Of a stretch of DNA of 64,000 nt, positions 1,350 through 56,141 are shown one piece after another (within the stretch, counting starts at the first letter, position 1; every line of letters begins with the position of its first letter). The stretch lies in contig CP066686.1 in the NCBI GenBank assembly GCA_016432365.1, positions 1,002,918 through 1,066,917 of the forward strand. Reading direction: 5' to 3'. Position numbers and translations under genes: made by a program. The notes beneath the pieces were generated by a model that made no database searches, was not told where the DNA came from, and was given only the letters and a program-made list of their open reading frames with translations. This DNA comes from Candidatus Woesebacteria bacterium. Its GTDB lineage: Bacteria > Patescibacteriota > Microgenomatia > UBA8517.

Positions 1350-2444
1350 ATGATAAATCTACAAATAAATTCCAAATTAAAAAACAAATTAGCTGCAGTG
1401 TTTACTTTATTTGCTTATTTAATTATTTGTAGATTTGCTTATTCGAACGTAGTCAAAGCCCAGGACATTCTTCCCCTTACCGTTGTACCCCCTAAGCAGG
1501 AAGTGCTGGTAAATCCTGGTGAGAAGTTTGTCACCACTGTTAAATATCTAAATCAAGGTAGCGTGCCTGTAAGTGGAACTATTAGTGTTCTTGACTTTAT
1601 TGTAGAAGACAATGTCGGGACTCCGTTATTCTTGGATAATCCAACAGTGGTTGGCACAACGACAATCTCCGCAAAATACTCTGCTGCAAAGTGGATCAGC
1701 TTCCCAACGGAAAACGTTACCATTGCAGAAAACGGCAATGTAGCCGTACCTGTTACTATTAATGTTCCAAAAAATGCAGCCGCCGGAGGACGTTACGCCG
1801 CAATTTTATTCCAACCAACTATCAATCAGGTTGAAGATGGCAAAGAAGGAACAGCCATAACTCCTACGGCAATCAGACTAGCCTCTTTAATTTATATCAG
1901 GGTTGCAGGACCAATTGCGGAAAAGGCCCGTATTGTTGATTTTCGTGCACCCGAGTTTTTAGAATACGGACCAATCGAAATTTCAACAACGATTCTAAAC
2001 GAAGGAAATTACCATATTACCCCCAAGGGTGAAATAACATTGAAAGACATGTTCGGACGGGTTGTGAGCAACTCTTCGCTAGATATAAAAAATATTTTCC
2101 CGGGTAGTACTAGAGTATATAACACCAATTTGGGATCAAAATTGATGTTTGGCAAATTTACAGCCACCCTGAACACAACTTACGGCGAGAAAGGACAGCT
2201 GCTTACCTCTACATTGGTTATCTGGCTCTTTCCATGGAGAGTCGCCTTAGCAATCGCTCTTGCCGTTGTCATCATCGTTCTCATAATAAAAATGTGGTTT
2301 AAGAGAGTGACCAAGAAAGAACAAAAGTTGGAAGAAGAACTTAAAGAAGAAACCAGCGAACTTGAAGCACTGAAATCAAAATTCAAAGATCAAATTAGCA
2401 GTAGTGAAAATCCTAAAGATCAATCCCCCCCGAGTACCCAATAA
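1350..2444 (+). CDS. Cell-surface protein with N-terminal signal/TM, beta-sandwich-like ectodomain, C-terminal TM anchor and K/E-rich cytoplasmic tail (DUF916-like architecture)
   Basis: N-terminal hydrophobic segment. C-terminal WLFPWRVALAIALAVVIIVLII helix followed by a charged coiled tail. Architecture resembles DUF916-type surface proteins of WxL loci (inference). Confidence 0.5.
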   Translation: MINLQINSKLKNKLAAVFTLFAYLIICRFAYSNVVKAQDILPLTVVPPKQEVLVNPGEKFVTTVKYLNQGSVPVSGTISVLDFIVEDNVGTPLFLDNPTVVGTTTISAKYSAAKWISFPTENVTIAENGNVAVPVTINVPKNAAAGGRYAAILFQPTINQVEDGKEGTAITPTAIRLASLIYIRVAGPIAEKARIVDFRAPEFLEYGPIEISTTILNEGNYHITPKGEITLKDMFGRVVSNSSLDIKNIFPGSTRVYNTNLGSKLMFGKFTATLNTTYGEKGQLLTSTLVIWLFPWRVALAIALAVVIIVLIIKMWFKRVTKKEQKLEEELKEETSELEALKSKFKDQISSSENPKDQSPPSTQ

Positions 2445-2487
2445 TCTCCTTAAAACATTTAGTCGATATAATATAATAAATGAGTTA

Positions 2488-3399
2488 ATGAAAAAATTTG
2501 TTGTATTCCCCGCGGCCTTGTTTGTTTTAACGCACTTTCTTTTGGTGGACGATGACTTAATCATCTTTGGACAAACACCCCCCGCCCCGACGACTACAGA
2601 GGCCCAAGTTGCGTCTGTCTTACCCCAGATAACAATCTCTGCAACTGTCGGAACTCCAATGTTAAAGCTTTGGGGATATGGTGCCCCCAATTCAAAGATT
2701 GAACTTAATGGTGACAGAGTCAGCGACTTTGCTTACACCAGAGCCGACGGTTATTTTGAATTTCCAAAAATATATCTCCCTACTCCAACCGGTGAGGTAT
2801 ACCCCGAGCTATGCTTGACCGGAATTGATCAAACAGGCCGCTCCACCCCGCCAACATGTATCCCCGACCTCCCGGCAAATGAAAGCAGCTTCGACATCGG
2901 ACCGGTAATAATGCCGCCTACTCTAAGTTTGGAGGAAGGCGTCACAACACAAGCTTTACAAACCGGAGCCAGTGGAATAACCATACCCAATTCAGAAGTA
3001 AAAATCGTTCTGGCCGAAGACAGTTCCACCAACATCGGCAAATTCGACATTGTTAGAGAAGCCCGAGCCTATTACATTCCAAATTATACTGTTAAGTCAG
3101 ACAAACAAGGTTATTTCAGTTTTAATATGCCGGACGCCAGTCCCAAAACTTGGCATGTTTTTGCTATTACAAAATATTCACAAGGTGCATCTTCCCCTAA
3201 AAGCAATACGTTGAAGTTTGTAATAATTTCCCAGGCGGCGAACACCTTTGAAAATATCTGGGCATTTATTCTTTCACTACTTGCCTTGCCTTCACTTATT
3301 ATTCTTGAAATTGTGGTAATTCTTTTGATCCTGACAGCCACCTTTTTGAGCAAAAAGGACAAGAGGAGAATATCTCTAAATACCACTAAACAGATCTGA
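2488..3399 (+). CDS. Surface protein with signal peptide and C-terminal TM anchor
   Basis: MKKFVVFPAALFVL signal-like start (internal Met of ORF 2404..3399; upstream part overlaps the previous gene). C-terminal hydrophobic helix plus KKDKRR tail. Confidence 0.45.
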   Translation: MKKFVVFPAALFVLTHFLLVDDDLIIFGQTPPAPTTTEAQVASVLPQITISATVGTPMLKLWGYGAPNSKIELNGDRVSDFAYTRADGYFEFPKIYLPTPTGEVYPELCLTGIDQTGRSTPPTCIPDLPANESSFDIGPVIMPPTLSLEEGVTTQALQTGASGITIPNSEVKIVLAEDSSTNIGKFDIVREARAYYIPNYTVKSDKQGYFSFNMPDASPKTWHVFAITKYSQGASSPKSNTLKFVIISQAANTFENIWAFILSLLALPSLIILEIVVILLILTATFLSKKDKRRISLNTTKQI

Positions 3400-3425: not shown

Positions 3426-3893
3426 TTAATCAAAAGTAACTGTAGTCTGTTGAATTAAGTTTATCCCGTCGATAGCAGCCTGAATTATGTAAACTCCCGT
3501 AAAAGACGCGGAGGAAATATCAAACGTCGCCCTTCCTTGAGCATCTGTAACGGGCTGGACTTCTGCAACCTGCAATGAATTACCTCCTCCGACAACAACT
3601 TTTTTACCGGATATTCCCAAACCCCGGTTATCTAAAATGAAAACGGTAATTCTAATCTTTTCTCCACCCGTTTTAGCTCTTAGAGGTGAAGCAAATATAT
3701 ACGAATTTTCCAAAGATAGACTCTGAACACCACGGGACTCTGTAACCGTAGACGAAGAAAACGCAGAGCTTCTAAATATAAGAGGACTTCGTATTGAAAA
3801 TAAAATAACAATTAGCGCAATAAGTAAGATAACAATTATGATAAGGGTGTAAACTGCATACCTTGGCCACCTGGGCGATCTGTCTTCGTTCAT
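3426..3893 (-). CDS. Small membrane-anchored protein with Ig-like (Big_1/invasin-like) domain
   Basis: N-terminal TM YTLIIIVILLIALIVILF. C-terminal VVVGGGNSLQVAEVQPVTDAQGRATFDISS...YIIQAAIDG resembles bacterial Ig-like domains. Confidence 0.4.
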   Translation of the reverse strand: MNEDRSPRWPRYAVYTLIIIVILLIALIVILFSIRSPLIFRSSAFSSSTVTESRGVQSLSLENSYIFASPLRAKTGGEKIRITVFILDNRGLGISGKKVVVGGGNSLQVAEVQPVTDAQGRATFDISSASFTGVYIIQAAIDGINLIQQTTVTFD

Positions 3894-4441
3894 GATATAA
3901 TTGATACAATTATAATAAGCTTAACATAAACGCATTTGCAAGCATTAAGAGAGCTTAATTCCACTTCCCTGCCCCCAGTAAATATAATAGCCAAAAGTTC
4001 GGTCTAAAAGAGGGGTAATTTTTCTTAGCACTCATTAACATCGGCTGCCAACTCCTGCTTTGATGATTAATAATTAAATTAAAATCAAATACTATACAGG
4101 CATGGGTTGCATTCATGCATAATTATATAAGTCTACTTCAAAAAAGGCCTCATTTTCCGCAACACAATGCTAAAGCAAAGAATAAACGCAGTTTTCCGCA
4201 AGTTTGCCTTCGTGCCTGAATATTAGGTAAAAAATGGTCAATAATGTGTATTATAAACAGATAAAATCTAAAAAATATAAAATAATTGTGCGTAAATTGC
4301 TTGCGGTAATTATACTACAGACTCTGTGAAAGATATTTTAAATATTCAAAACAAATGATACGGTAAATACCCTTGACAGGCTTGATAAATATTTTAATAA
4401 TAGTCTAATCAGTATAATTTGTATAATCTAGCCTTAATAAT

Positions 4442-4954
4442 ATGTCTGATAATTTAATAGATTCTACCAGAAATAACTTCATAAAATACTTGAGTTCTCT
4501 TGGTCTATCTCCTAAGACCCACAAAAATTACAGAAGTGATCTCGGCCATTTTATAAGCTGGCTAATTTTGAGGGTCAAGTCACTCGGTTCTTACGTCACA
4601 ACTTTGACGGAGGCTGTCCCCTTCATGAATAAAAATATTGTCTCTGAATACAAATCGTATTTGATTGAAAATAATATTCCGGCAAAAACAATTAACAGGC
4701 GTCTCTCTACCCTACGGCACTTAACCAAATATTTGGCTATTTCGAACTTAATTTCCACAGATCTTATGGGTGGAGTGGAAAACATAAGCGACGGGATAAA
4801 AGTGATAAAAAACACATCAGATCCTCTCATTGACGAGTTCCGGGCACATCTTGAGACTGAAAAGGTTTCCAAAAACACAGTTAAAAATTATGTTAGTGAC
4901 GTCCGGCAATTTTTATCTTGGCTTGAAGCTAATCAAAAAAATCTTAACGCTTAG
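4442..4954 (+). CDS. Tyrosine-recombinase N-terminal core-binding (Phage_int_SAM-like) domain protein, no catalytic domain; ends at an in-frame TAG
   Basis: SPKTHKNYRSDLGHFISWL plus PAKTINRRLSTLRHLTKYL match both halves of the XerD core-binding (CB) domain (NTLNAYRRDL..WL / ATSSARLLSAVRRLFQYL). A third repeat, SKNTVKNYVSDVRQFLSWL, is the first half of a second CB domain. No catalytic R-K-H-R-H-Y domain. Confidence 0.55.
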   Translation: MSDNLIDSTRNNFIKYLSSLGLSPKTHKNYRSDLGHFISWLILRVKSLGSYVTTLTEAVPFMNKNIVSEYKSYLIENNIPAKTINRRLSTLRHLTKYLAISNLISTDLMGGVENISDGIKVIKNTSDPLIDEFRAHLETEKVSKNTVKNYVSDVRQFLSWLEANQKNLNA

Positions 4955-4969
4955 TTATTAATTTATCTT

Positions 4970-7900
4970 ATGTCATCCCTACCCACCATCCTGCCAAAAG
5001 TAATTAAGGCATATCAAACTGAGATTGCCAGAAATAGTTCTCCTGCAACAGCCAAAAGAAAAATAGTTTCTTTGAGAAAGTTTCTTGATTGGGCAAAGGG
5101 CAAAGGTCTAATCGATGTTAACTTGGAGGAAACTATCCTGGCTCAGACTAAAAACGAGACAAAAATTCCCGCAAAAAATGCGTTGAATGTCAGGTTACAG
5201 AATATCCGGAACTTATACAAAAGGTATCGAAATATACCTGGGACCTCGTATCTTAATATTGCAATTCTGGTAATTTTATCCTCAGCTTTAGGACTTGGCA
5301 TATACAATCAGTTCTTTAAAAATGCTACCAACCCTTTTGCTGCGACATCGCTAGTTAGACCAAACCGCTATCTTTCTTTTCAGGGAAGGTTGACGAATCA
5401 ATTTTTGAATCCGGTTACGGCAGTTACCAGTGTCGTTTTTACTTTGTATGACGCGGCAAGTTCCGGAACGACCCTTTGGACTGGAACTTGTAATGTAACT
5501 CCTGATACTGACGGGGTATTTTCAACGCTTCTTGGAAGCGACTGCGGCTCTGAAATTTCGAGTAGCGTTTTTTCTGACAATGCAAGCGTTTGGTTGGGAG
5601 TCAAAGTCGCGGCCGATGCAGAGGCTACCCCAAGAATTCAGATTGCAACTGTCGCCTATGCCCTAAATTCCGAAACTCTCCAGGGCTACCCTGCTTCCTC
5701 AAGCGCAACAATTAACACGGTGCCGGTAGTTAATAATTCAGGACAAATTGTTTTAGCGGTTAGCTCTCCCAAGATTCAATCTACAACAGGTACTTTCGCC
5801 ATCGAAGGTCAGGCTATTACAATACAAACTCCAAGTGCATCAAACGGTAATGTTACTATAGCACCGGACGGGACAGGTCAGCTTAATTTAACTTTTACCG
5901 GCGCCTCCCCGGGGTCCGGAACAGGAATGGTAAATGCGACCGATGCAAACTTAACCTCCGGCTCTTTATACTATGGTTCGGTTGCAAGCAATGCCTCCGG
6001 TTACAACCTTCTACAGTTACAATCCGGTTCATCGCTTACAAATAAATTTGTTGTTGATTCGGCAGGAAACGCTTCTGCTTCCGGTGATTTAACTTTGGCA
6101 GGAACAAGTTCAATACAGACAACAACATTCAGTCCCCTGACAATTGGCGGAAATACAACAGGAAATATAGTACTATCCCCTTCAAACGATATTGCAGGAG
6201 GAAACATTTCTCCAAACGTCACCAATGTAACCGACTTGGGTACTTCGTCAAAATTATTTAGAAATATATATGGAACAACCATATATCAAGGCGCAAACCA
6301 GGTGTGCGATGCCGGTGGGTCTGTACCCGGATGCGCAAGCGGTATAAATTACTGGGGACAAGCTCTCGGGGCACTTTACCCGCTCAATAACACAACAGAT
6401 CTTTTGATTGGAGCAACTGCAACAACAAGCGCCAAGTTTGCGTTTAAAAATGTTTTGACTGGAACTCCAACTGCTTCAATATCAGGAACTACAAACATTG
6501 CCACATTCATTGACGGAAACGGAAACATAAGTAGTACAAACCGCAACAATCTAACTCTTGGGAATTCATCGACCTACAACACGACAGGAAATATCCTTTT
6601 GAATCCAAATGGAACTGGAAATGTTGGGATAGGGACTACTGCCCCTAACGTCCCGCTTGAAATAAATAGAGATTCTGCCGCCGCGGTACAAGAAATCGTC
6701 AGACTGTCGAATGGAGGCGCCGGATTCGGCACAGGCAGTAGGATATCTTTCGCAAATGCTGGGACACTAAATCAGGCTTATGTGGAATCAGGTCTTTACA
6801 ATGGTGGTGGTCTAGATGGGTATCTCGCATTCGGCACCGGTAGTTCAGGTTCAGCAGCCGAGGTTGCCCGCTTTGATGCCACGGGTAAGTTTGGGATAGC
6901 CGACACTTCCCCAGTTTCACTCTTTACTGTTGGTAACGGCGATCTTTTCCAAATCGACAGCACCGGAAGAGTGGTAAATATAGACGGAGTCGCCCACTCA
7001 ATAGATGACGTTTCCGGTGACCTGACCCTTACCTCTAATAGTACATCTGTAGCCATAGCCGATGATCTGGCTGTCAACGGGGCAACAAGCGCTGATATTA
7101 CTTCATCTACAACAACTGCGTCACTTTTCAATTCGACAGTTACTACCCTAAATATCGGTGGAGCAGCTACAACTCTAAATCTTCAGGGAGCCAGTGCAGC
7201 TACCCTTAGTATTGGGAATGCAAATACCACAACCGCGCTAAACTTGTCATCGGGCACCGGAGATGTGGCAATCTCATCAACCGATTTAATTACTCTCTTC
7301 CCCACTAACAATGTCAGAATTGGGAACGCAACAGATTACGCCTCATTCGGATCTGCCGGAGATATAACTTTTGTTGATGCGGACGGAGCCGCCAGTATAA
7401 CAGGCCCAGCCGGCGGAGCCTTCAGTGTACTTGCCGGAGCTTCTCAGGCATTAACTTTAACCGGAAATGCGGCATCTGTCTGGAGTACAACAGGAGGTCT
7501 GACGTTGAGAACAACATCAGGGAATGTGCTTGTTGACACAGCCACAGCCGGTGATGTAACTATCGGGCCCGATGTTTCTCTGGGAACGGGAGACGATCTT
7601 TTCCTTCAGGATGGCACACTTACTGCCGCGGTTCCTTTAACTGTAGCGGATACTGCCCTAAATGCCGGACTAACACAGGGAATAATTGATGCTATTAATG
7701 ACGTGTACGACCTAACCAGTGGATCTACAAATTACTGGCAACTTAATACTCTTACCCTTTCCCCAGCCAACAATACTTATGATTTGGCAATCGGTGGGAC
7801 CGCAACTGCCTCCGCCAAATTCCAGGCTTTTGCTTTGGAAAAAGCAGGCGATGCCACAAGCAGGCTCGCCAAACTTAACTCGAGTTTAATTACGACAGGA

Positions 7901-10900
7901 ACATTATTTGAAGCAACAGCCAGCGCAATAACCTCCGGAAACATGATCAAACTCGGTCAAGGTGGAAATTCGGCATTCTCAGGAAACGGGATTTGGATGG
8001 ATTTTGATAATACAGGTGGTGGAGGTGGAACTTTCACCGGAAACTTTTTGAAGTTTGACAACGCAACTACTACCAAATTTATCGTCGATGCCAGTGGAAA
8101 TCTTGGCGGGGCCGGAGTAGGACAATTTGGCAGCACAACCGTGACAACTTATTCCAGATTTGGGTCAGCAACCACCGGACACGCTCTTTCCAGCGCCAGT
8201 GATCTTTTGGTTAGTGGAAAATTGGAACTTAACGACACTCTGTTCCTTGACGGTGGGACTATTGCAAACTCAGCAGGAACAGGAACTATTACTTTTTCTA
8301 CTACCCCCACAACCTCCTCCAATGCCCTTTCAGCCAGCAACTGGCTTATCGAAAACACTGCTAATGTGGGGCAAGCTGCATTAATAGTCAATCAGCAAAA
8401 AGGAGGAGATCTGTTTACCGCTTCGGCGTCCGGCACCCCCAAATTCACTATTTCTAACACAGGAGTTTTAACCCTGGCAAACAACGAAACAATTGACAAC
8501 ACAACAGATGGGACAGTTAATGTTGGAGCAACGACTTTTAAACTAACCGGAGGCACCACTGTAGTATCTGATCAAGCAACTGTAGCACTGTTCAACACTA
8601 CGACCACCTCTCTTTCTTTGGGAGGCGCGGCAACAACTTTAAACATGCTTGGTGCGGGAAGCGCAACTTTTAATATTGGAAATGCTACCGGTACAACCGC
8701 ACTAAATCTAACCAGCGGCACAGGATCACAAACTTTTACATCGTCGGTTGCGACAGGAACAGGTCTCGCCGGAGCATTTGTCTATAAAGATGCTGTCTTA
8801 ACAACCGGAGACATGATTTATGCAACAGCCTCTGCTATCACTTCGGGAAATATTATGAAACTTGGTGAAGCCGGTCCCCAGAACTTTACCGGAAATGGTC
8901 TTTATATGGACTTTGACAATACAGGCGGAGGAAGTTTTACCGGGAACTTTGTAAAACTTGACAATGCCGGAGCAGAAAAATTTAAAATCGATTCAAGCGG
9001 TAATGTTCATATATATGGCAACTTAACCTGTGATGGCAACTGCGCCGATACAAAACTTGAAACATTTGTAAATAGTGGTACCTATACTCTACCCAGTGAC
9101 GCAACCATGATAATCGTTGAGGGTTATGGATCCGGTGGTGGAGGTGGTGGTGGGTCGCAAGGAACAACCGCTCAGTACCGTGGTGGTGGTGGAGGTGGTG
9201 GTGGAGGTGCTTATGTCACCGACACTTTTCCGGCCGCCAGTGTTTCTGCCACCGTTGCCATTACTGTTCCAGCCGGTGGCGCAGGTGGAGGCTCCCTAAC
9301 TGACGGTACTGCCGGTTCCTCTTCTAGTTTTGGGTCCTACCTTACTGCCTACGGCGGTGGAGGTGGAGGAAACAATGGCGCTACCGGTGGAGGTGGCTCA
9401 GGTGGAGGTGGAGGTGGGCGTACCGGTGTCGGAGGCTCTTCGGTTGACGATGTTAATGGCGCAGGTGGTAGCCCCAACGGAGGAGCTCTTGCAGCTGACG
9501 CCATCTATAGCGACGGTGGTGCCGCCGGCGGCGATGCTGCAAGTGGCACCAACGGTTCTACTGGCGGTTCAGCCTATGTTGGTGGTGGTGGAGGTGGAGC
9601 TGCAACTACCACAGGACAAAATCAGTCTGGTCACGGCGGAAGCAGTTTACATGGTGGTGGAGGTGGAGGTGGAGGGGCCACGGCACAAGCAATTACCTGT
9701 TTGCTTAAGGACGGTGGAAACGGAGGTTCAAGTAATAATTATGCAAACCTGGGGGTCGGTGGAGCTGCGGGTGGAACTGGCGCAGGTGGAGCAGGTACAA
9801 ACGGGTCTGCACTAGCCGGATACGGTGGAGGTGGAGGTGGAGGTGGAGCCAATATATGTGCATCAGGTACCGGCGGCGCAGGTGGAAATGGTGGCGCTCC
9901 CGGAGGTGGTGGAGGTGGAGGTGGAGCCGCAGCCGCTGCATCCGGAACAACTGGTGGTACCGGTGGAACAGGAGCACGAGGAGAAATCAGAGTTTGGACA
10001 ATTAGTAGCAATGCAGCAGATTTGGCAGAAATTTATACCTCTAACGATATAAGCCTTGAGGCTGGCGACGTTGTTGCTCTTGACTCAAGCCTAAAAGCCG
10101 GTGTTAAGAAAACAACAAATACTTACGAGGATGAAACTTTAGGCATAGTCTCCACAAGACCAAACCTAGTTATAGGCGACGCCATTAAAGAAGGTAATAA
10201 TGTTGTACCGGTAGCTCTCGCAGGACGCGTTCCGGTTAAGGTAACAGCCGAAAACGGACCAATCGTTGCCGGAGACAAATTGACAAGCTCCTCTATCCCG
10301 GGTGTAGCTATGAAAGCTACAAAAACAGGTATAACGGTAGGAACAGCCATGAGTGACTTTAACGGGGTAGAAGGAGAGATTGGCAGAGTCACAGCCTTTG
10401 TTAATACTTCCTATACTCCAGGAATGCTTCTTCACAACCTACTGTCCGAAAACGGATATGATATTCCGGAAGAAGTTTGGAGATCGAATAATATCGATTA
10501 TTCTTGGATCGTTTTGGCAACGTTGGTAAGTGAAAGCAAGAAGCTTACTTCATCCCAAATTTCGGAAATATATGGTGACCGCGTTGCAGCTACGCTTGAA
10601 GTAATCGCACCGAGAATAGTTGCTAAGTCGATTTATGCCGGCGAAATTAATGCGACCGAAAGTGGCAGTTTAGTCATAAACGCTGTTAACACGATTATTG
10701 ACGGCTTGATAACAGCGAAGAATATTGTTGTAAAAAATATCGTAGCAGGGGCCATTGAAGTCAACGACCTCATTGCCCAAAATATCACTTCTAAGATATT
10801 CAAGGTTCAAATTATTACACCACTCCCCGACCAAACTGATATTGCAGTCAGACTTGGAAGTGAAGCAACCCCGTCAGGGAAATTTGCAATTCAGGATGTT

Positions 10901-11785
10901 ACAGGAGCAGAGATGGCTGCAATTGATTCATTTGGCAATGCCACCTTTTCAGGAACAGTTAACAGTCAACAGTTGGCAGTAAACAGTGAAGCAACAATAT
11001 CAGGAACATTATTTGCAGATAACATAAAATCAAAAAGCCTCGATGAAATTCAAACACTTTTAACAAAAGTGCAGTCTGATCAGAACCTATTAAAGGATTC
11101 TCAAAGCTGGAATACTCATACTGCAACAAACTCAGGTACACTTGCTGGTATTTCCGCCAGTGACCTGTATATAACCAATCAGGCCGCAATTAATTCACTG
11201 TCTGTCTCAAATAGTATTGCAGTAGGTTCCGATCTGATTTTCGGTTCTTCAGTCAATAGTATAAATACTTTATCTTCCCCTCTTGAAATCCAAAATCTTG
11301 CAATGGCACCTGTAGAAATCATGGCCGGCCTGGTTAGAATTGACACTCACGGAAATGTAGATATCGCCGGAAACTTGTTTGTTGCAGGTGAAGTTAGATC
11401 GAAAACAGGGTTCAAAGTTCAAGATTCAAATTCCAATAACGTGGCCTCGATTGATGCAGAAGGAATCGGCAACTTTAATTCAGTTTCCGCTACTCAATTT
11501 GTAATTGCAGCCGGAGTAGACGCAACTAACTCTTCAACAATAAACGGAGTTATAACAACCAATGCAACAGCAGGTTCTGCAACTATTGCATCTGGCATCA
11601 CAGAAATAACTATCAAAAATCCAAAGGTTACCGATTACACACTAATCTATGTAACACCAACCTCTTCGACAAACAACAATGTACTTTATGTCAAAAGTAA
11701 GCAGATAGGAGAATTTGTAGTCGGATTTGCAAACCCGATAGACGTCGATGCAATGTTCAACTGGTGGATCGTACAAATACAATAA
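4970..11785 (+). CDS. Giant (2,271 aa) single-pass surface protein: cytoplasmic CB-domain remnant, TM helix, beta-helix/fibre-like repeats, Gly-rich low-complexity region, C-terminal domain
   Basis: N-terminal SSPATAKRKIVSLRKFLDWA is the second half of a CB domain. TM YLNIAILVILSSALGLGIY. Long T/N/G/S-rich repeats include GNVGIGTTAPNVPLEIN, a tail-fibre-like motif. Gly runs at aa ~1380-1690. Same reading frame as 4442..4954. Confidence 0.7.
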   Translation: MSSLPTILPKVIKAYQTEIARNSSPATAKRKIVSLRKFLDWAKGKGLIDVNLEETILAQTKNETKIPAKNALNVRLQNIRNLYKRYRNIPGTSYLNIAILVILSSALGLGIYNQFFKNATNPFAATSLVRPNRYLSFQGRLTNQFLNPVTAVTSVVFTLYDAASSGTTLWTGTCNVTPDTDGVFSTLLGSDCGSEISSSVFSDNASVWLGVKVAADAEATPRIQIATVAYALNSETLQGYPASSSATINTVPVVNNSGQIVLAVSSPKIQSTTGTFAIEGQAITIQTPSASNGNVTIAPDGTGQLNLTFTGASPGSGTGMVNATDANLTSGSLYYGSVASNASGYNLLQLQSGSSLTNKFVVDSAGNASASGDLTLAGTSSIQTTTFSPLTIGGNTTGNIVLSPSNDIAGGNISPNVTNVTDLGTSSKLFRNIYGTTIYQGANQVCDAGGSVPGCASGINYWGQALGALYPLNNTTDLLIGATATTSAKFAFKNVLTGTPTASISGTTNIATFIDGNGNISSTNRNNLTLGNSSTYNTTGNILLNPNGTGNVGIGTTAPNVPLEINRDSAAAVQEIVRLSNGGAGFGTGSRISFANAGTLNQAYVESGLYNGGGLDGYLAFGTGSSGSAAEVARFDATGKFGIADTSPVSLFTVGNGDLFQIDSTGRVVNIDGVAHSIDDVSGDLTLTSNSTSVAIADDLAVNGATSADITSSTTTASLFNSTVTTLNIGGAATTLNLQGASAATLSIGNANTTTALNLSSGTGDVAISSTDLITLFPTNNVRIGNATDYASFGSAGDITFVDADGAASITGPAGGAFSVLAGASQALTLTGNAASVWSTTGGLTLRTTSGNVLVDTATAGDVTIGPDVSLGTGDDLFLQDGTLTAAVPLTVADTALNAGLTQGIIDAINDVYDLTSGSTNYWQLNTLTLSPANNTYDLAIGGTATASAKFQAFALEKAGDATSRLAKLNSSLITTGTLFEATASAITSGNMIKLGQGGNSAFSGNGIWMDFDNTGGGGGTFTGNFLKFDNATTTKFIVDASGNLGGAGVGQFGSTTVTTYSRFGSATTGHALSSASDLLVSGKLELNDTLFLDGGTIANSAGTGTITFSTTPTTSSNALSASNWLIENTANVGQAALIVNQQKGGDLFTASASGTPKFTISNTGVLTLANNETIDNTTDGTVNVGATTFKLTGGTTVVSDQATVALFNTTTTSLSLGGAATTLNMLGAGSATFNIGNATGTTALNLTSGTGSQTFTSSVATGTGLAGAFVYKDAVLTTGDMIYATASAITSGNIMKLGEAGPQNFTGNGLYMDFDNTGGGSFTGNFVKLDNAGAEKFKIDSSGNVHIYGNLTCDGNCADTKLETFVNSGTYTLPSDATMIIVEGYGSGGGGGGGSQGTTAQYRGGGGGGGGGAYVTDTFPAASVSATVAITVPAGGAGGGSLTDGTAGSSSSFGSYLTAYGGGGGGNNGATGGGGSGGGGGGRTGVGGSSVDDVNGAGGSPNGGALAADAIYSDGGAAGGDAASGTNGSTGGSAYVGGGGGGAATTTGQNQSGHGGSSLHGGGGGGGGATAQAITCLLKDGGNGGSSNNYANLGVGGAAGGTGAGGAGTNGSALAGYGGGGGGGGANICASGTGGAGGNGGAPGGGGGGGGAAAAASGTTGGTGGTGARGEIRVWTISSNAADLAEIYTSNDISLEAGDVVALDSSLKAGVKKTTNTYEDETLGIVSTRPNLVIGDAIKEGNNVVPVALAGRVPVKVTAENGPIVAGDKLTSSSIPGVAMKATKTGITVGTAMSDFNGVEGEIGRVTAFVNTSYTPGMLLHNLLSENGYDIPEEVWRSNNIDYSWIVLATLVSESKKLTSSQISEIYGDRVAATLEVIAPRIVAKSIYAGEINATESGSLVINAVNTIIDGLITAKNIVVKNIVAGAIEVNDLIAQNITSKIFKVQIITPLPDQTDIAVRLGSEATPSGKFAIQDVTGAEMAAIDSFGNATFSGTVNSQQLAVNSEATISGTLFADNIKSKSLDEIQTLLTKVQSDQNLLKDSQSWNTHTATNSGTLAGISASDLYITNQAAINSLSVSNSIAVGSDLIFGSSVNSINTLSSPLEIQNLAMAPVEIMAGLVRIDTHGNVDIAGNLFVAGEVRSKTGFKVQDSNSNNVASIDAEGIGNFNSVSATQFVIAAGVDATNSSTINGVITTNATAGSATIASGITEITIKNPKVTDYTLIYVTPTSSTNNNVLYVKSKQIGEFVVGFANPIDVDAMFNWWIVQIQ
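9120..9990 (+). repeat. GGT/GGA glycine-codon low-complexity tract inside the giant gene
   Basis: Repeated ggtggaggtgg units encode GGGGGGG runs. The antisense strand gives a spurious Pro-rich ORF. Confidence 0.6.
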
Positions 11786-11949
11786 CTGGCATGCCCCACG
11801 AAGCTTTTAGCGAAGTGGGGTGGATCGTACAAGTTAAAAACTAATATCTAGGTATGTCTTTATATATACTTATATATTATTTGAAATACTTTGAACTAAA
11901 AAACTATTGACAGGGTTAATTAAATAATTAATACTAATACCATATATTC

Positions 11950-13872
11950 ATGATAAAAATATTAAAAGAAATTCAAAAATATCTTCTATATATAGTAGTA
12001 GCGACGTTTCCGGTTTTTATACTTTCAAATTCAACTTCACCTGAGGTCCTCTCCAAGTTGGTGCTACTTGTAATCGCTATAACAGCGGTTATTGCAATTT
12101 GGATTTTAAGAATGATTAAAACAGGTAATCTGATTTTCAATATTGGGAAATTCGATCTGGGGGTGCTCCTTTTGGCGTTGGCATATATTCTCTCTGGAAT
12201 AGTGAAGACTGCGAACAAACCGGAGGCTTTCTTTATACCCGGAACGGCTTCGATCGTGGCAGCAATGGCAATAATATATTTCCTGATAAATCAACTTGAT
12301 AAAAAAGCTAAAACAGGGGTTTTGATTTCGTTCTTCGCCTCCGGAATATTTCTTTCCCTATCCATAGTTTTTAGTGAGCTAGGTATATTTACAAAAATTC
12401 CGCAGCTTCCGGCATTTATAAAAGTTGCCTCATTTAACCCTCTCGGTGGGGCTTTGCCTTCAATTATATATTTGGTCCCAATTGTGTTAATAGGAATTTC
12501 ACTGATCATAAAAGACAAAGATTTGGTCAGGAAGATTTTTTGGGCTGTAGCAAACAGTTTGGTAATCATGGCGATAGTGATTTTGATCGGAACATCTCTT
12601 CCGGGAAAAGCCCAATCGCCTAAGTTTCCTAGCATGCAATCCTCCTGGGAGATCGCTGTCGGAACCGTTGCAAAAAGTCCTGTTTTTGGAATTGGTGTAG
12701 GCAACTATCTTACAGCCTTCAATCTTTTTAGACCGGTTACTTATAATCAAACAAGCTTGTGGTCAGTTAAATTCTCAACTGCCAGTAATTATTATCTGTC
12801 TGTCCTCACTGAAGTGGGTTTTTCGGGGATATTTGCTTTAACAATACTCTTTTTGAGCATTTTTAGATTTTTTGGACGGGGTCCGGTTGTTAAAAATACG
12901 AATGAAATGATAATCGACGGATTGGAGAAGCTTTCCTTGGCCGCCATAATCCTAACAATGGCATTTTACCCCGCCTCCCCTGTTGCAATTTTCCCTATTT
13001 TTATTCTTCTGGGGGTGTTTTCAAATTCCGAAGATAAAACTTTCGCCGCCTCAAATACCAGATTTGCAACAATCGTAATAGGGATTATTTTGGGAACAGG
13101 AATCTTTTTTGTTGATTATTTCGGAACCAAGGCACTTATTGCCGAATCTACATTTAAAAAGTCCCTTGAGGCCCTAGGTAAAAACGACGCAAAATCAACT
13201 TTTGACTTAATGCAGAAGGCAGTTCAAGCAAACCCGGGAATCGACAGATACCATGCATCGCTTGCCCAAGTTGATATGGCCCTGGCACAATCAATTGCAA
13301 ACAAAAAAGACCTTACGGATTCTGACAAGAATACAATTACCCAACTGGTTCAGCAAGCAATCATCGAAGGTAAGGCGACTGTCGCCCTAAACCCCGAAAG
13401 ATCCGGCAACTGGGAAATACTGGCCCAGATTTACCGAAGCGTAATGCCATTTGCCAGTGGTGCCGATCAATTTACGATCCAATCGTATTCTCAGGCGGTT
13501 GCACTTGATCCGACAAATCCGAATCTCAGAATTGCACTAGGTGGAGTGTATTATGCACTGGGACGTTACGATGACTCAATAGACACCTTTAAACTGGCTG
13601 TCCTAGCCAAACCGGATCTGGCCAATGCCCATTACAATTTAGCGATAACTTACAAAGCCAAGAAGAATTATGACAGTGCCATAAGCGAGATGAATCTGGT
13701 TTTATCTCTGGTTGCTAAAGATTCGGAAGATTACAAACTGGCCAAAAACGAACTCGATAATTTAATGAAAGATAAACCGGCCACAACCAAAACAACTACA
13801 AGTCAAGGACAGCTAACCACACCACAGTCTGTGAGTCCAAACAATATCGAAGCTCCGATCACTCTTCCCTAG
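11950..13872 (+). CDS. Polytopic membrane protein, O-antigen ligase/polymerase-like, with C-terminal TPR repeats
   Basis: About 10 predicted TM helices in the N-terminal 400 aa. C-terminal ALDPTNPNLRIALGGVYYALGRYDDSIDTFKLAV...AHYNLAITYKAKKNYDSA is TPR-like. TAG stop. Confidence 0.45.
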   Translation: MIKILKEIQKYLLYIVVATFPVFILSNSTSPEVLSKLVLLVIAITAVIAIWILRMIKTGNLIFNIGKFDLGVLLLALAYILSGIVKTANKPEAFFIPGTASIVAAMAIIYFLINQLDKKAKTGVLISFFASGIFLSLSIVFSELGIFTKIPQLPAFIKVASFNPLGGALPSIIYLVPIVLIGISLIIKDKDLVRKIFWAVANSLVIMAIVILIGTSLPGKAQSPKFPSMQSSWEIAVGTVAKSPVFGIGVGNYLTAFNLFRPVTYNQTSLWSVKFSTASNYYLSVLTEVGFSGIFALTILFLSIFRFFGRGPVVKNTNEMIIDGLEKLSLAAIILTMAFYPASPVAIFPIFILLGVFSNSEDKTFAASNTRFATIVIGIILGTGIFFVDYFGTKALIAESTFKKSLEALGKNDAKSTFDLMQKAVQANPGIDRYHASLAQVDMALAQSIANKKDLTDSDKNTITQLVQQAIIEGKATVALNPERSGNWEILAQIYRSVMPFASGADQFTIQSYSQAVALDPTNPNLRIALGGVYYALGRYDDSIDTFKLAVLAKPDLANAHYNLAITYKAKKNYDSAISEMNLVLSLVAKDSEDYKLAKNELDNLMKDKPATTKTTTSQGQLTTPQSVSPNNIEAPITLP

Positions 13873-13882
13873 GTATAATTTA

Positions 13883-14383
13883 TTACGGAGTTGCTATTGG
13901 GGTCTCAACAGGAGTTGTCTCGGGAGTTGACTTAACCTTAGCTGGGGCCGTTGGTGACGGAACAGGACTAGACACGGCTTGATTATTTATGTTTACCGCT
14001 CCAACTTCAACAATCATGTTTGTTGAAGGCCTGTATAAAATTGCCTTTGCGGCCTTTTGATAAATTAATACTTTATCGCCATTTTGAGCTTTGGCAAAAA
14101 ACGGCTGATCTTTGACTTTTGAAGCGTCAGTAACTGTTGCTACGGTAGGTTTCTCATCATCCGGCAACGATATAAGTTTGCCAACCTGAGCAACTAAAGC
14201 ATCGACCTCTGCTTGAACTGCGGCCGACCCTTTAGAAAGTCCAAACCATTCCGGTTTTTGTTGGGCCGTAAAAATTCCCCCAAATACTCCAAGCGCAATA
14301 ATTAAGATATAAGGAATGAGTCTGAAGATTAAAGACCCTAACCCCCCTTTTCCTCCCTGTTCGTTTTCTGTCTTGTCTTCCAT
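13883..14383 (-). CDS. Small membrane-anchored protein with Pro/Thr-rich C-terminus
   Basis: N-terminal TM LIPYILIIALGVFGGIF. C-terminal PVPSPTAPAKVKSTPETTPVETPIATP. Confidence 0.4.
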   Translation of the reverse strand: MEDKTENEQGGKGGLGSLIFRLIPYILIIALGVFGGIFTAQQKPEWFGLSKGSAAVQAEVDALVAQVGKLISLPDDEKPTVATVTDASKVKDQPFFAKAQNGDKVLIYQKAAKAILYRPSTNMIVEVGAVNINNQAVSSPVPSPTAPAKVKSTPETTPVETPIATP

Positions 14384-14437
14384 TCCTATAATTTATATCA
14401 CCAATGACACCTTTATGCAAACCGTGTGGATCTGATG

Positions 14438-15523
14438 TTACGACAACGTTTCAGGTGGGGTTGAACCGGAATGGATTTTGTGCTCTTGAATTGCGCCCTC
14501 TTTATAACCACCGATTTTGGAGATACGAACCGCGATAATTAAGAACCCGACGGCTGCAAGCCCGGCCAAACCCAAATCCCTAAAATAAAACGGGGTAAGC
14601 GACTCCAAAGCATCTGTTGCCGGAGTTGCTACCGCGAGAGTCATGCGTTGACTTCCGACAACTATTGGTGAATAAGCAATCAGATATCTTGTTAATGCCC
14701 CATTTTTATTTTCGTCCGGCAGAGCAATATCGATACTGCCCTCGTCAGTATCCATCAAAACAGCTTTTATTTTTTGTACCAAAACCGCCCCCCCTGCAAA
14801 ACCGGCTTTGTTCAAATAATCTAAATAGTTTACTCCAATAAGCTTTTTAATTGGACCTGCAACGATGACCCCGTTTTGGTCAATTAAATAAACCCTAGTG
14901 TTATTTGTAACCTTTAAAGGATCTAAATAATATGAAATTGCTTCGTCAATAATAAACCCCGTAACCAAAGCCCCGTTAAATTGTCCATTTTTAAATACCG
15001 GGGAAACAGCCGAAACTACATATCTACCTGTTGTAAAGCCGATTTTTGATTGGAAAGGCTCTACAATAAAAACCTCGCCTTCTTTGGCCGTTTTTGCCCA
15101 GTTAAAATATTCCCTCTCGGAAACATCTATTCCTTCCCCGGTTGGCCCGATTCTATCAGCCCCAAACCTTACAATTCCTTGTCTGTCAACCAAAATTAAC
15201 CCCGACACAGGTGTTCCGTTCCAACCGTCCATGAAACCTTTAAATTCCACAGGAACTTCCTTCGGATCAAAGGCGATAATGCGTGAGTGATTGGAATAAC
15301 TGGAGGTTTGATGACTAAGATCGCTTATAAAAAGTTTGTATAATGAGGCCCCGGCCCTTGCAACAGATTTCTGGCGATTAACCATTTGCTGTATTAAAGC
15401 ATCAGATGCTCCTTTGCCAAGCAGAAGATAAATTACGGTCGCGACGCAAATCATCAAAATTCCAAATAGAAGAAAAATATTATTGGAAGTTTTAAACAGT
15501 ATATTTAGAACACCTTTTACCAC
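14438..15523 (-). CDS. Membrane protein with extracytoplasmic sensor-like (Cache-like) domain flanked by two TM helices, no output domain
   Basis: N-terminal and C-terminal TM helices bracket a ~280-aa domain. No kinase, GGDEF or other output domain. Confidence 0.35.
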   Translation of the reverse strand: MVKGVLNILFKTSNNIFLLFGILMICVATVIYLLLGKGASDALIQQMVNRQKSVARAGASLYKLFISDLSHQTSSYSNHSRIIAFDPKEVPVEFKGFMDGWNGTPVSGLILVDRQGIVRFGADRIGPTGEGIDVSEREYFNWAKTAKEGEVFIVEPFQSKIGFTTGRYVVSAVSPVFKNGQFNGALVTGFIIDEAISYYLDPLKVTNNTRVYLIDQNGVIVAGPIKKLIGVNYLDYLNKAGFAGGAVLVQKIKAVLMDTDEGSIDIALPDENKNGALTRYLIAYSPIVVGSQRMTLAVATPATDALESLTPFYFRDLGLAGLAAVGFLIIAVRISKIGGYKEGAIQEHKIHSGSTPPETLS

Positions 15524-15597
15524 AGCACAAATAGTATGCCATATCGACAGTTAACTATGTCAAGTAGATTTTAAACATGGTAATGGTAAACTAAACT

Positions 15598-16260
15598 ATG
15601 CATAAATTTGAAAGGTTTCTATTTTTTTACAGCATTCTTGCCATAACTGTATTTTTTATATCATTCGGAGTTTTCTCTCCTTCCCCCCTTAACTTTATAA
15701 GTGGCATTCTAATGCTCCCCAGCGCCTTTTACTTCTGGATACGGACGACCGACCCGGAACACTCAAGTCCAAACGTATGGTCCGTAAGATTCGTTTTGGT
15801 TTTAGGGCTTTTGTCGACTTTTGGAATCTTCGGATTTTACCTTGCATCAAGGGGTTTGCCGCAAATCCGAGTCCTTGAGGAAAAAATTGATGGTCTCGCT
15901 ATCAAAAACACAGGTTTACAAAACGAGCTGGAAAAAACAAACTCCGAACTGGCTAAGTTTAAACAAAGTATCGCTACTCCTTCGGCTACTGTAAAGGGAA
16001 TTAGTACAAACGATATAACAGTTGCTGATCTGGTTGCCGGATCGCCGACACCGGGTTCAGGACAAAGAATAACGGGTATTTCCGGCCAATCTTCGATTAA
16101 CGTTTACCAATCCACTTCCCTCTCCTCCCCAAAAATCGGCACCGTCGACGGTAGTATCACCTATCCGTATATAACAAAACAAGACGGTTGGTATAAAATA
16201 GTTTTAACTAGTGCCAAGACCGGCTGGGTAAACGAAAATCAGGTGGTCGAAATACAATAA
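15598..16260 (+). CDS. Membrane protein with coiled coil and C-terminal SH3b-like domain
   Basis: Three TM helices in the N-terminus. C-terminal GWYKIVLTSAKTGWVNENQVVEI is SH3b-like. Confidence 0.4.
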   Translation: MHKFERFLFFYSILAITVFFISFGVFSPSPLNFISGILMLPSAFYFWIRTTDPEHSSPNVWSVRFVLVLGLLSTFGIFGFYLASRGLPQIRVLEEKIDGLAIKNTGLQNELEKTNSELAKFKQSIATPSATVKGISTNDITVADLVAGSPTPGSGQRITGISGQSSINVYQSTSLSSPKIGTVDGSITYPYITKQDGWYKIVLTSAKTGWVNENQVVEIQ

Positions 16261-16269
16261 CCTACAAAT

Positions 16270-17073
16270 ATGAAGTCACTGCTTCCAAAATTACTGTTTT
16301 TTTACTCAACAGTTATTGCAATACTGATAACAGTTAGTAGTGGAAGGTTTGTTTTTCTGTTTTTGCCGGTTCTTACTTATTTTCTTTTAGAAACGACGCG
16401 TCGGTTCTTTTTCTCGCAAGATCAAATTCTCTCGGCTGGCATTGAAAAGATATTGATATATTACGGTTTTGTAATAAGTTGTCTTGTAATGGTAATGGGT
16501 TTTGTATCTGCGGGCAGCCTGACTCAGATAATTACCGGAACACTGTTTATCCCATTATTTATATATTTTGCTTCCCAGGTTTTTCCAAGAAGAAACCGAG
16601 CCGTCCGCCTTCCGAAAACTCCAGAAATAATAATCCAGACTACCGAAGATAAAGTTGACGAAAAAACCATGAAACTGAAAAAGGAAGGCGTAGATGTTGA
16701 CCGCAGAGTGTTTCTAAAGCTGATTAGTTCGGCAGGGCTTAGTCTTTTCTTGTTCTCAATATTTACCAAACGGGCAGAGGCAGCATTTTTCGGAAGTGTT
16801 CCGGGACCGGGAACGGTGTCTGTTAAAGATATTGCAGGAAATAAAATCAATCCTGCAGAAAAACAACCAACAGACGGCTATCGAATCAGTAGGCTTGACG
16901 ATGCTTCCCCCGCCTACTACGGATTTACAAACAAAGACGGAGCCTGGTTTGTGATGAAAGAATTGGAAGACGGGTCCTACCTTTACCGAAAAGGAAACTC
17001 CGGTTTTGCCGCGGCGTGGGCAGAAAGAGGAAACCTGGGTATTACATACGATGAATTTGAGAACGTATTTTAA
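16270..17073 (+). CDS. Membrane protein carrying an internal twin-arginine (RRVFLK) signal followed by a ~95-aa exported domain
   Basis: Four N-terminal TM helices. Then MKLKKEGVDVDRRVFLKLISSAGLSLFLFSIFTKRAEA matches Tat signal consensus S/T-RRxFLK plus h-region plus AxA. Confidence 0.4.
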   Translation: MKSLLPKLLFFYSTVIAILITVSSGRFVFLFLPVLTYFLLETTRRFFFSQDQILSAGIEKILIYYGFVISCLVMVMGFVSAGSLTQIITGTLFIPLFIYFASQVFPRRNRAVRLPKTPEIIIQTTEDKVDEKTMKLKKEGVDVDRRVFLKLISSAGLSLFLFSIFTKRAEAAFFGSVPGPGTVSVKDIAGNKINPAEKQPTDGYRISRLDDASPAYYGFTNKDGAWFVMKELEDGSYLYRKGNSGFAAAWAERGNLGITYDEFENVF

Positions 17074-17122
17074 AAAGTCCAGTTTTACACCTCTTGACCT
17101 TTGACCCAAAATCGAGTATTTA

Positions 17123-17620
17123 TTGAGTATGAAACTTTCAAAAGAGATTTGGCTCGTAGTTGCGTTTGTTGCTTTTCTTCTGGCTTGGCTTATCGACAGA
17201 CTGGCTGGACCTGTATCGATCGCTGTCGGAAACCCGATTGCATTTCTTTCCTCCTCAAGACTCCTTAACACCTATCCGTTTACGGCAACGGCAATAATCA
17301 TAAGAACTCTCGCAATTTTTATTTCAGCAATGCTGATTCTTTCACTCTTTAACAGAAAATACTTTACCAAAGCCGTTGTTTTATTCTTCATTTGTGTTCT
17401 GGCTGAATTTTTTTCAATTCAACAACTCGCAACAGGGTTTAGAGTCACAACCATACAGTGGACACTTTCGATTGCCTATGCAAGTCTTATCTTAGGGGTC
17501 GGGATTGTCTGGCTAATCCTAATGGGAATCTGGGCAAGTTTTAATAAAGAAACCACCTCTACCGAAAGCTCCAGCGAGGCGAGAGAAGATTCAGTACTCA
17601 CCCCTCCCGAGTCGGAATAA
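17123..17620 (+). CDS. Polytopic small membrane protein
   Basis: Four to five hydrophobic helices and an acidic C-terminus. Confidence 0.4.
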   Translation: MSMKLSKEIWLVVAFVAFLLAWLIDRLAGPVSIAVGNPIAFLSSSRLLNTYPFTATAIIIRTLAIFISAMLILSLFNRKYFTKAVVLFFICVLAEFFSIQQLATGFRVTTIQWTLSIAYASLILGVGIVWLILMGIWASFNKETTSTESSSEAREDSVLTPPESE

Positions 17621-17701
17621 TCAAATCTACAAATTTCAAATTAAAAGCACTAAATAACCAACGCATTTACACTGAGTCTTCGAGATGCAAGCGTTTGCTC
17701 A

Positions 17702-18118
17702 TTACTTGTTTACAATCAATCTCCAGGCCAATCTCTGCATTATATAAGCCCCAAGTCCGATTGCAAAAGTCCAGAAATAATTAGTGATTCCAAATCCGGC
17801 AACTTGAGAAAATCTGGAAACTATCCAAAACGCAAAAATGTTTGCGCTGAAAAAATAACCGAACGTGACTGCGGCACTATCGAACTTAATTCCTTTGCTC
17901 ATGGCAAAATCCCAAAGAACCCAAATGAAAAAAGTTACCCAAAAACCGGCATATATAGCCGACTCAACGGGATTAAAACGCCAATTACCCAGAACTATTT
18001 CTTGAGAAAACATACTTCCAAAAAAATACAAAACTACGGAGTTAACTAACCAATAAGCAAAATATAATAAGTGGTTATACATAAATCTCACCCCATCTCT
18101 ATTCCATGAATATATCAT
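17702..18118 (-). CDS. Polytopic small membrane protein
   Basis: Hydrophobic W/F-rich helices throughout. Confidence 0.4.
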   Translation of the reverse strand: MIYSWNRDGVRFMYNHLLYFAYWLVNSVVLYFFGSMFSQEIVLGNWRFNPVESAIYAGFWVTFFIWVLWDFAMSKGIKFDSAAVTFGYFFSANIFAFWIVSRFSQVAGFGITNYFWTFAIGLGAYIMQRLAWRLIVNK

Positions 18119-18158
18119 AAATTCGAAAATCTTTCTTTATGATATTATTTACTTACAA

Positions 18159-20576: not shown

Positions 20577-20740
20577 AATTAATATATCAATTCCGTCTTT
20601 AACATATCAATTCCGACGTAAATATAAATCCCCCTTGACAGACCTTGCCACGGTCGCTGTAAACTGTTTGTAATCTCGGTTTCGAACATTTGAATGGTTG
20701 AAGATTTGAAATCAAGACTACATAATAGAAATATAGTTAT

Positions 20741-52897: not shown

Positions 52898-52919
52898 TTC
52901 TATTTCAAGGTATTGTTCT

Positions 52920-53035
52920 GGCGATGAGATATTTTCGCGGTAGGTTGCCCCACAACTATCGTCTCCGCTGACCCGTTTCACTTCTGTGTTCGGAAAGGGA
53001 ACAGGTGGTACCAGGTCGCACAAATCACCAGAACA
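52920..53035 (-). rRNA. rrf: 5S ribosomal RNA
   Basis: Reverse complement matches the conserved 5S core: CGTTTCACTTCTGTGTTCGG...AGGTGG...CCAGG. Confidence 0.7.
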
Positions 53036-53289
53036 ATAACTTGAAAACAGAATTTAATTTTCTTGCAAGAAAATTAAACCTGGTTCTCTAATTTTTCAGA
53101 AGAAAAATTAGCAAATATCTTTTTTTAAGAAAAAGGCCGCGTCCCACTTATGTGAGGGATCGCAAGAAATCGACCAATTCGCATTAGTAGCCTTAATCCC
53201 TTACGGGACTTCCAGCGCTAACCGATTAACCCGATATTCTGTCGGGGGTCTAACGATACTTTCGTATCAGGAATCCTAATCTCGGAGGC

Positions 53290-53322
<33 letters not shown>

Positions 53323-53974: not shown

Positions 53975-54009
<35 letters not shown>

Positions 54010-54477: not shown

Positions 54478-54508
<31 letters not shown>

Positions 54509-55481: not shown

Positions 55482-55538
<57 letters not shown>

Positions 55539-56104: not shown

Positions 56105-56141
<37 letters not shown>

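Follow-up and report, generated by a model that had tools for sequence, protein, structure and literature searches.

Two adjacent genes, here called A and B, were analysed in a 64-kb window that is part of a 1.08-Mb contig of a Candidatus Woesebacteria metagenome-assembled genome (MAG); the term window refers to this whole stretch throughout. Gene A encodes a small, basic protein built from core-binding (CB) domain modules of the kind that form the DNA-binding arm of tyrosine recombinases, and gene B encodes a single-pass membrane protein with a giant ectodomain. The second of two CB domains, CB2, is divided between the products of the two genes. The split into A and B is old and conserved across species, with the boundary lying between the two helical hairpins of CB2. 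Below, we describe the layout of the locus, the divided domain, the occurrence of split and fused forms among relatives, and a model for how the two products may work together.

Organization of the locus

The coordinates of genes A and B and their relationship, as first read in an earlier note made from the sequence of this window, were confirmed by mapping of open reading frames (ORFs): gene B is in frame with gene A, and only a single TAG and five sense codons (LLIYL, 4955–4969) stand between them (Table 1). The boundary corresponds to a surface loop joining helices 2 and 3 of CB2. In the NCBI records, gene A is deposited as QQG41613.1, a ‘site-specific integrase’, and gene B as QQG41614.1, a ‘hypothetical protein’.

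A scan of the junction revealed neither a promoter-like site nor a plus-strand terminator between the two genes, and we infer that A and B are co-transcribed. A Shine-Dalgarno-like motif precedes 10 of 43 long ORFs of the window, so the lack of such a motif before gene B is normal here. Many genes of the window start behind an A/T-rich leader, and in some of them a TATAAT-like sequence lies just 5′ of the ATG (e.g., 4442 and 22841); together with the scarcity of Shine-Dalgarno-like motifs, this suggests short or leaderless mRNAs.

Table 1. Features of the A/B locus and of inserted elements at related loci (prefix L); positions without a prefix refer to the window
Feature	Position	Strand	Description
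Upstream neighbours	333-1328, 1350-2444, 2404-3399	+	Three predicted surface or secreted proteins
Upstream neighbour	3426-3893	-	Big_1 Ig-like protein
Promoter-like site	4373..4401	+	TTGACA-17-AATAAT, 11/12 match, upstream of gene A; from a consensus scan only
Gene A	4442..4954	+	170 residues, TAG stop, basic (isoelectric point, pI, 9.5), cytoplasmic; CB1 and the first two CB2 helices
CB1	4475..4735	+	Complete Phage_int_SAM_1 core-binding domain, A residues 12-98, pI 10.2
CB2a	4823..4936	+	First CB2 helical hairpin, A residues ~128-165, ...KNYVSDVRQFLSWL
Gene boundary	4952..4969	+	TAG of gene A (4952-4954), then 15-nucleotide (nt) A/T-rich spacer to the gene B ATG
Gene B	4970..11785	+	2,271 residues, TAA stop, single-pass (N-in) membrane protein, giant ectodomain
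CB2b	4991..5101	+	Second CB2 helical hairpin, B residues ~8-44, ...IKAYQTEI...SPATAKRKIVSLRKFLDWA
Transmembrane (TM) helix	5249..5317	+	B residues 94-116, YLNIAILVILSSALGLGIYNQFF; follows a basic juxtamembrane stretch; equivalent to helix 271-297 of the P0002 model
Ectodomain	5318..11782	+	Acidic (pI 4.3), Gly/Thr/Ala/Ser-rich
Gly-rich block	9059..10024	+	B residues 1364-1685, >=40% Gly in 50-residue windows
Downstream neighbour	11950..13872	+	Polytopic Wzy_C (O-antigen-ligase-like, below Pfam cut-off) and TPR protein
Small-ORF sites	L028:10433-10687, L066:10421-10610, L077:10418-10835, L078:5218-5427		Small ORF between A and B
Hairpin sites	L031:10457-10575, L011:10472-10567, L026:3731-3860, possibly L040:910-1010		Long-stem hairpin between A and B

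A core-binding domain divided between two genes

The Pfam model Phage_int_SAM_1 (SAM_1) matches gene A with an E-value of 4.7e-18 and 65.7 bits over the whole protein, the best stretch spanning residues 12–98. The N-terminus of gene B, taken alone, matches only positions 39–81 of the 83 positions of the same model (E 0.024). In a merged translation of A and B, made with an X in place of the stop codon, a second full-length match appears at residues 130–220, covering model positions 1–81 of 83, and the segment across the junction reaches 42.6 bits on its own (E 7.4e-11; the gathering score is 22.3). This match is far beyond chance, and the bisection of CB2 by the gene boundary is therefore real. 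Both the CB-domain homology and the domain cut by the stop codon, which the earlier note had proposed, hold up in these searches, and the full-length CB2 match appears only once the two halves are joined. The NCBIfam models of XerC and XerD align to gene A with 49–52 bits (cut-offs 330–335), over model positions 2–96 only. A catalytic tyrosine-recombinase domain was not found in A or B with Pfam (E<=1) or NCBIfam, which makes the ‘site-specific integrase’ label on gene A misleading.

An AlphaFold2 model of a fused homologue, P0002, has a mean predicted local distance difference test score (pLDDT) of 78 and places the boundary in a structural context. In this model, CB1 comprises the helices between residues 9 and 101, and CB2 is formed by helices 128–139 and 144–162, a loop at 163–175, and helices 176–189 and 192–211. 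The site equivalent to the split falls in the 163–175 loop, where the pLDDT drops to 66. Beyond CB2, the chain continues with amphipathic helices, a TM helix (residues 271–297) and the beta-rich base of the ectodomain. A Foldseek comparison of the P0002 model with the PDB returned integrase N-terminal domains among its matches (3nrw, TM-score 0.78), with weak E-values.

The best PDB profile match to the CB region is chain 14 of entry 9i5v, a 401-residue protein deposited as ‘Ribosome-associated translation inhibitor RaiA’. Its N-terminus aligns to the CB2 profile in the manner of a XerC/XerD CB domain (E 1.2e-8), possibly as a result of a fusion or of mislabelling. The chain was judged irrelevant here and is probably unrelated to the A/B family.

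Membrane topology and ectodomain of gene B

Residues 94–116 are the sole dominant hydrophobic segment of gene B. The part of the protein on the N-terminal side of this segment has a pI of 10.5 and the 2,155 residues on its C-terminal side a pI of 4.3; gene B is an N-in, C-out (type-II) membrane protein. The overall layout described in the earlier note, in which CB modules precede one TM helix and a giant ectodomain and no catalytic domain is present, agrees with Pfam, NCBIfam and hydrophobicity analysis.

The family is most conserved in the membrane-proximal part of the ectodomain (LSFQGRLT...), which the homologue model shows as beta-rich. The glycine-rich character of the ectodomain, also noted earlier, is borne out by the block at residues 1364–1685, within which Pfam Gly_rich_2 (PF21722) matches residues 1370–1587 with 25.5 bits for the whole protein and 30.3 bits for the segment, a small margin over the cut-off of 24.3. 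The same block matches a PHROG family that is tail-fibre-assembly-like. Known adhesin repeats were not detected in the ectodomain, and no sequence relatives of gene B were found in the PDB. A PADLOC search for defence systems gave no matches, and membership in a defence system was rejected.

Split and fused forms among relatives

The family is large. A HMMER search with residues 1–300 of gene B against 1.84 billion cluster representatives yielded 434 matches at E<=1e-30, which represent 50%-identity clusters, and 2,484 at E<=1e-10; full-length members range from about 1,500 to 6,346 residues. The 420-residue merged N-terminal sequence, used as a query, gave 75 protein matches, nearly all from Patescibacteria/Microgenomates, many of which cover 93–100% of the query as a single chain. 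One match of this kind, P0001, is 54% identical over 100% of the query. Some records are titled ‘uncultured Gammaproteobacteria/Pseudomonadales’, but these titles look like placeholders and do not indicate an occurrence outside Patescibacteria. The form encoded by one ORF, which the earlier note had envisaged, does exist: many relatives in other Microgenomates encode one, two or more CB domains, the TM helix and an ectodomain of 1,500–6,300 residues as a single chain.

A scan of one genome per GTDB species located 202 loci. Of these, 80 were examined by tblastn with the merged query and by mapping of stop-to-stop ORFs; many of them come from MAGs. The gene is split at the same loop in about 30 of the 80 related loci. 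When 81 loci are classified by arrangement, A and B are split and adjacent in 19, split with 140–950 nt between them in 11, and split with 5.5–7.2 kb between them in 2–4 (the genes lie kilobases apart in L071, L075, L080 and L082), while 30 loci are fused with two CB domains and 15 fused with one. As an independent sample, the best 150 representatives from the 1.84-billion-protein set include 36 that start at a B-type N-terminus.

All seven of the closest relatives (L003, L004, L005, L008, L009, L012 and L018), each from another species and ~50–90% identical, are split in the same loop, with either TAA or TAG as the stop. The details of the junction differ among them, with gene B in frame 0, +1 or +2 relative to gene A and spacers of -11 to +18 nt. 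In L003, a TAA directly abuts the ATG; L004 reads TAA-ctt-ATG; L005 has a TAG, a 10-nt spacer and gene B in the +1 frame; L008 and L009 have gene B in other frames; and in L012 and L018 the ATG of gene B overlaps the end of gene A by 11 nt. What stays constant is the position: in every case, gene A stops just past the helix ...Y.SD.R.FL.W, and gene B opens with an ATG of its own, ahead of ...Y......S..T..RK..S..KF..WA. In the fused forms, the boundary position lacks a Met. An identical boundary is present in distant lineages, among them L015 (Shapirobacteria), L070, L074, L013, L011, L031 and L026. Two genes with an intact CB2 inside one of them, the arrangement that the earlier note had named as speaking against a bisected domain, did not turn up; the orthologues consist of two genes with CB2 still divided.

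Both halves are kept by purifying selection after the split. Among split relatives, gene A has a dN/dS of 0.065–0.15, with dS above 1.5 or saturated/undefined, and the first 300 codons of gene B have a dN/dS of 0.04–0.20, with saturated dS. When the tail of A and the head of B were joined in ten diverse split pairs, a full-length SAM_1 domain was restored in nine, at 42–61 bits, including pairs with 0.7 and 7.2 kb between the genes. These scores equal or exceed the 27–51 bits reached by the undivided CB2 in ten fused relatives.

These observations bear on another reading of the in-frame TAG within a domain, in which one gene was broken, either by a nonsense mutation of recent date or by an error in sequencing or assembly, and A and/or B is a decaying pseudogene. 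The fused form is common in the family, and the 54%-identical P0001/L002 is continuous through the split loop, as such a reading would have it. We nevertheless regard it as highly improbable. The split recurs at the same place in seven of seven closest relatives, all of different species; divergence between relatives is saturated at synonymous sites while gene A remains constrained; gene B is intact over 2,271 codons; the Pfam signature is kept in both halves; and the independent Logan assembly of run SRR12113422 is identical, matching the junction region over 6,513 of 6,513 nt. In the comparison of orthologues that the earlier note had called for, the ORF is continuous in some lineages, and the split state of all seven closest relatives speaks against an error or a recent break.

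The L002 locus (10001–21911) shows a further oddity. Past residue 636, the giant frame continues as separate ORFs of 1,346 and 1,317 residues. A Gly_rich_2 ORF follows further along, and a 23S_rRNA_IVP-like gene intervenes. Either assembly frameshifts or a true multi-gene giant locus is possible.

Translation across the junction

Programmed read-through or recoding at the TAG, constitutive or conditional, would join A and B into a protein of ~2,440 residues. A single in-frame stop separates the genes in the window and in L003, L004, L013, L015 and L070, fused single-chain relatives exist, and low-level read-through may occur at any stop. However, most of what is seen at the junction makes programmed read-through very unlikely, and the conditional version offered in the earlier note fares no better. 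TAG is an ordinary stop here, as that note had argued, the terminator of 11 of the window's 44 long ORFs, among them the ORFs that end at 13872, 22737 and 23353. The tRNAs of the window are two tRNA-Ala genes, with no suppressor tRNA among them. Reassignment of TAG to a sense codon was rejected along with read-through. In L005, L008, L009, L012 and L018, gene B is in the +1 or +2 frame or overlaps gene A, and the stops are TAA or TAG; by hand count, 7 of 14 tightly adjacent pairs are in frame, versus about one third expected by chance. Every gene B has an ATG of its own at the boundary, where the fused forms lack a Met, and in other relatives A and B are separated by whole genes. Finally, the RNA of window positions 4925–5045 folds no better than shuffled sequences (z +0.65).

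The junction might instead be a phase-variation or recombination switch, in which a slipped-strand tract or an invertible segment toggles a fused protein. Surface proteins are often phase-variable, and an A7 tract lies at 4935–4941, just 5′ of the stop. Yet simulated gain or loss of one A yields new stops and no fusion, the junction is not flanked by significant repeats, direct or inverted, and no repeat is common to the relatives at this site, so that such a switch is scarcely credible.

Evolution of the split and fused states

A tree of the family was built by a rough neighbour-joining (NJ) procedure on 170 residues of the conserved ectodomain base, with paralogues included. In this tree, the clade of the window is uniformly split, and its sister clade is fused. 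Parsimony on the same rough NJ tree counts ~12 changes between the split and fused states versus 25 (minimum 19) with shuffled tips, and would place ‘split’ at the root. The state is inherited, yet it has flipped several times, so that split and single-chain versions alternate in the evolution of the family.

A model for the divided CB2 domain

We propose that A and B are the products of a stable gene fission within a domain and that their halves re-associate, docking the basic cytoplasmic CB protein A on the giant surface protein B; on balance, we consider this explanation probable. In this model, the two CB2 hairpins, one from each protein, would re-associate non-covalently into a complete four-helix CB2 bundle. 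Protein A would then sit on the cytoplasmic tail of B, and the pair would recreate the tandem-CB module of the single-chain relatives. Gene B would be translated from its own ATG, by translational coupling, re-initiation, or initiation on the unstructured A/T-rich spacer, as for most genes of the window. Hairpin re-association is suggested by the existence of fused relatives, following ‘Rosetta-stone’ logic, and by the CB signature kept in both halves. In addition, a link that is easily gained and lost at one loop argues for association of A with B.

The alternative is that A and B act independently, with A a free DNA-binding protein and the N-terminal helices of B either a leftover or serving another role, such as membrane targeting. 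This would suit the lineages in which A and B lie kilobases apart and the fused forms with one CB domain. On the other hand, half of a four-helix bundle would expose a hydrophobic core and would be expected to decay, yet the CB signature is kept in nine of ten pairs. The split and fused states also interconvert repeatedly at this loop, which is easy only if assembly needs no covalent link. We consider independent action unlikely.

Several points weigh against the docking model that we prefer. A single-sequence AlphaFold2 prediction of the A and B concatenation was poor overall (pLDDT 48.6), although the CB2 region was its best part. The separation of A and B by several kb in some lineages means that tight stoichiometric coupling is not universal, and, as the one-CB fused forms show, the family can do without the first CB domain. 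The counts of transitions between states rest on a rough NJ tree of 170 residues with paralogues mixed in. MAG assemblies may hold errors, but the consistent ATG starts, the frame changes and the inserted genes are not explained in this way. Lastly, we infer DNA binding by the CB module from its domain family and charge only.

With these points in mind, a more speculative extension can be outlined. The basic tandem-CB module may bind nucleic acid, as CB domains do in XerC/XerD, and a giant, probably glycosylated surface fibre or adhesin may in this way be linked to DNA or to a cytoplasmic partner. Such a link could act as a tether or as a ToxR-like connection from outside to inside. Put together, a recombinase CB domain may have been turned in the Microgenomates into a split, self-assembling cytoplasmic docking module, whereby a soluble tandem-CB nucleic-acid-binding subunit clips onto the two-helix tail of surface fibres of 1,500–6,300 residues and physically couples contact outside the cell, with a host cell or a substrate, to DNA or gene expression, the covalent link being gained and lost repeatedly at one loop as assembly does not need it. 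We offer this broader picture tentatively, as a possible one.

Gene neighbourhood and inserted elements

The four genes upstream of A (Table 1) encode a Thr/Ser-rich secreted protein, a weak WxLIP_PGBD match with a C-terminal TM anchor, another TM-anchored protein and the Big_1 protein; these neighbours adjoin A/B or the fused gene in 46–62 of 81 related loci. This conserved cluster of surface-protein genes supports a surface role for gene B. The first upstream gene is 94% identical to its counterparts in L003/L005, which is much more conserved than A or B. Wherever the flanking sequence extended far enough (at least 12 loci), the giant gene is followed by the Wzy_C-like TPR gene, which hints at glycosylation.

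Between A and B, relatives carry NYN-like genes, 23S-IVS-protein-like genes and a small ORF; the intervening genes take up 0.6–7.2 kb in some genomes. Selfish-looking insertions were noted at L022:2058-2887, L039:3937-4673, L064:9239-9946, L053:10496-11182 and L069:525-1471. In L080 (2819-9958), the intervening stretch holds a TPR protein and two PDDEXK_3 nucleases flanking a 1,547-residue Laminin_G_3 protein. Small selfish-looking genes seem to land preferentially at the A|B junction. The small ORF encodes ~50–60 residues and is conserved in a Roizmanbacteria-like clade, where it separates A from B; its motif is (F/C)DPxxxGxPY, including FDPxxEGxPY.

One subclade carries a long-stem hairpin of ~75–100 nt (cggtggacc...tctcgggg...ggtccaccg) between A and B. 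Its fold z-scores are -4.3 to -5.0, and an Rfam search with the element gave no match. The window lacks this hairpin, which may represent either a mobile palindromic insertion or a stem-loop with a regulatory role.

Elsewhere in the window, a minus-strand rRNA locus at 52916–57010 comprises tRNA-Ala(UGC), the 23S gene (53930–56761) and the 5S gene (52916–53032), with a gap of ~900 nt between 23S and 5S; no 16S rRNA was detected within the 64-kb window.

Comparison with known systems

The relationship to XerC/XerD tyrosine recombinases is confined to the arm. CB1 and the rejoined CB2 match CB models above threshold and share the integrase N-terminal fold, and the alignment of A to the XerC/XerD models covers their first ~100 positions. 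Unlike those enzymes, A and B have no catalytic domain with its R-K-H-R-H/W-Y active site, so the pair is not a tyrosine recombinase. Moreover, their CB domains are in tandem and joined to a TM helix and a giant ectodomain, and one of them is divided between two genes.

ToxR/CadC-type one-component regulators combine an N-terminal cytoplasmic DNA-binding module with a single TM helix and an extracytoplasmic domain. The A/B family resembles them in topology only: a single-pass N-in arrangement, a cytoplasmic module of DNA-binding type and a C-terminal domain outside. In contrast to ToxR/CadC, the cytoplasmic part is CB/SAM-like only by Pfam and not an OmpR-type winged helix, and the outside part is fibre-like and 2,000–6,000 residues long, where ToxR/CadC have a small sensor domain.

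Split genes are known from Nanoarchaeum equitans and from the fission and fusion pairs called ‘Rosetta stone’ pairs, whose products re-associate. Likewise, the A/B family has fused and split versions in related genomes, conserved pieces and a break in a surface loop. What sets it apart is that the break cuts a small four-helix domain instead of falling between domains, that it involves a soluble protein and a giant membrane protein, and that the state has changed many times within one family. As in giant bacterial adhesins and Gly-rich phage tail-fibre-like proteins, the gene B ectodomain is huge, acidic and of low complexity, includes a Gly_rich_2 block and is encoded in a cluster of surface genes. 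Unlike such adhesins, however, gene B has an N-terminal signal-anchor helix after folded cytoplasmic domains, in place of a cleaved signal peptide with a sortase or C-terminal anchor.

Biological significance

The earlier note was aware of no account of this fusion, and our literature searches turned up none either: no description of the A/B family was found in full-text searches, which is not proof of its being unpublished. This is an apparently undescribed family of giant surface proteins, large and conserved, whose members carry recombinase-arm modules on the cytoplasmic side; it belongs to the Patescibacteria, also called the candidate phyla radiation (CPR). These organisms make up a large share of bacterial diversity, and their means of host attachment and sensing are poorly known. 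The family counts among the biggest surface proteins of the CPR and carries an unexpected module borrowed from site-specific recombinases. Hundreds of its members or their small partners are labelled ‘site-specific integrase’, which may inflate counts of mobile elements in CPR genomes.

More generally, a conserved split within a four-helix domain that alternates with fused forms amounts to a natural protein-complementation experiment, and the divided CB2 predicts a specific protein–protein interface. An in-frame stop inside a domain, as between genes A and B, need not signal read-through, a pseudogene or an error.

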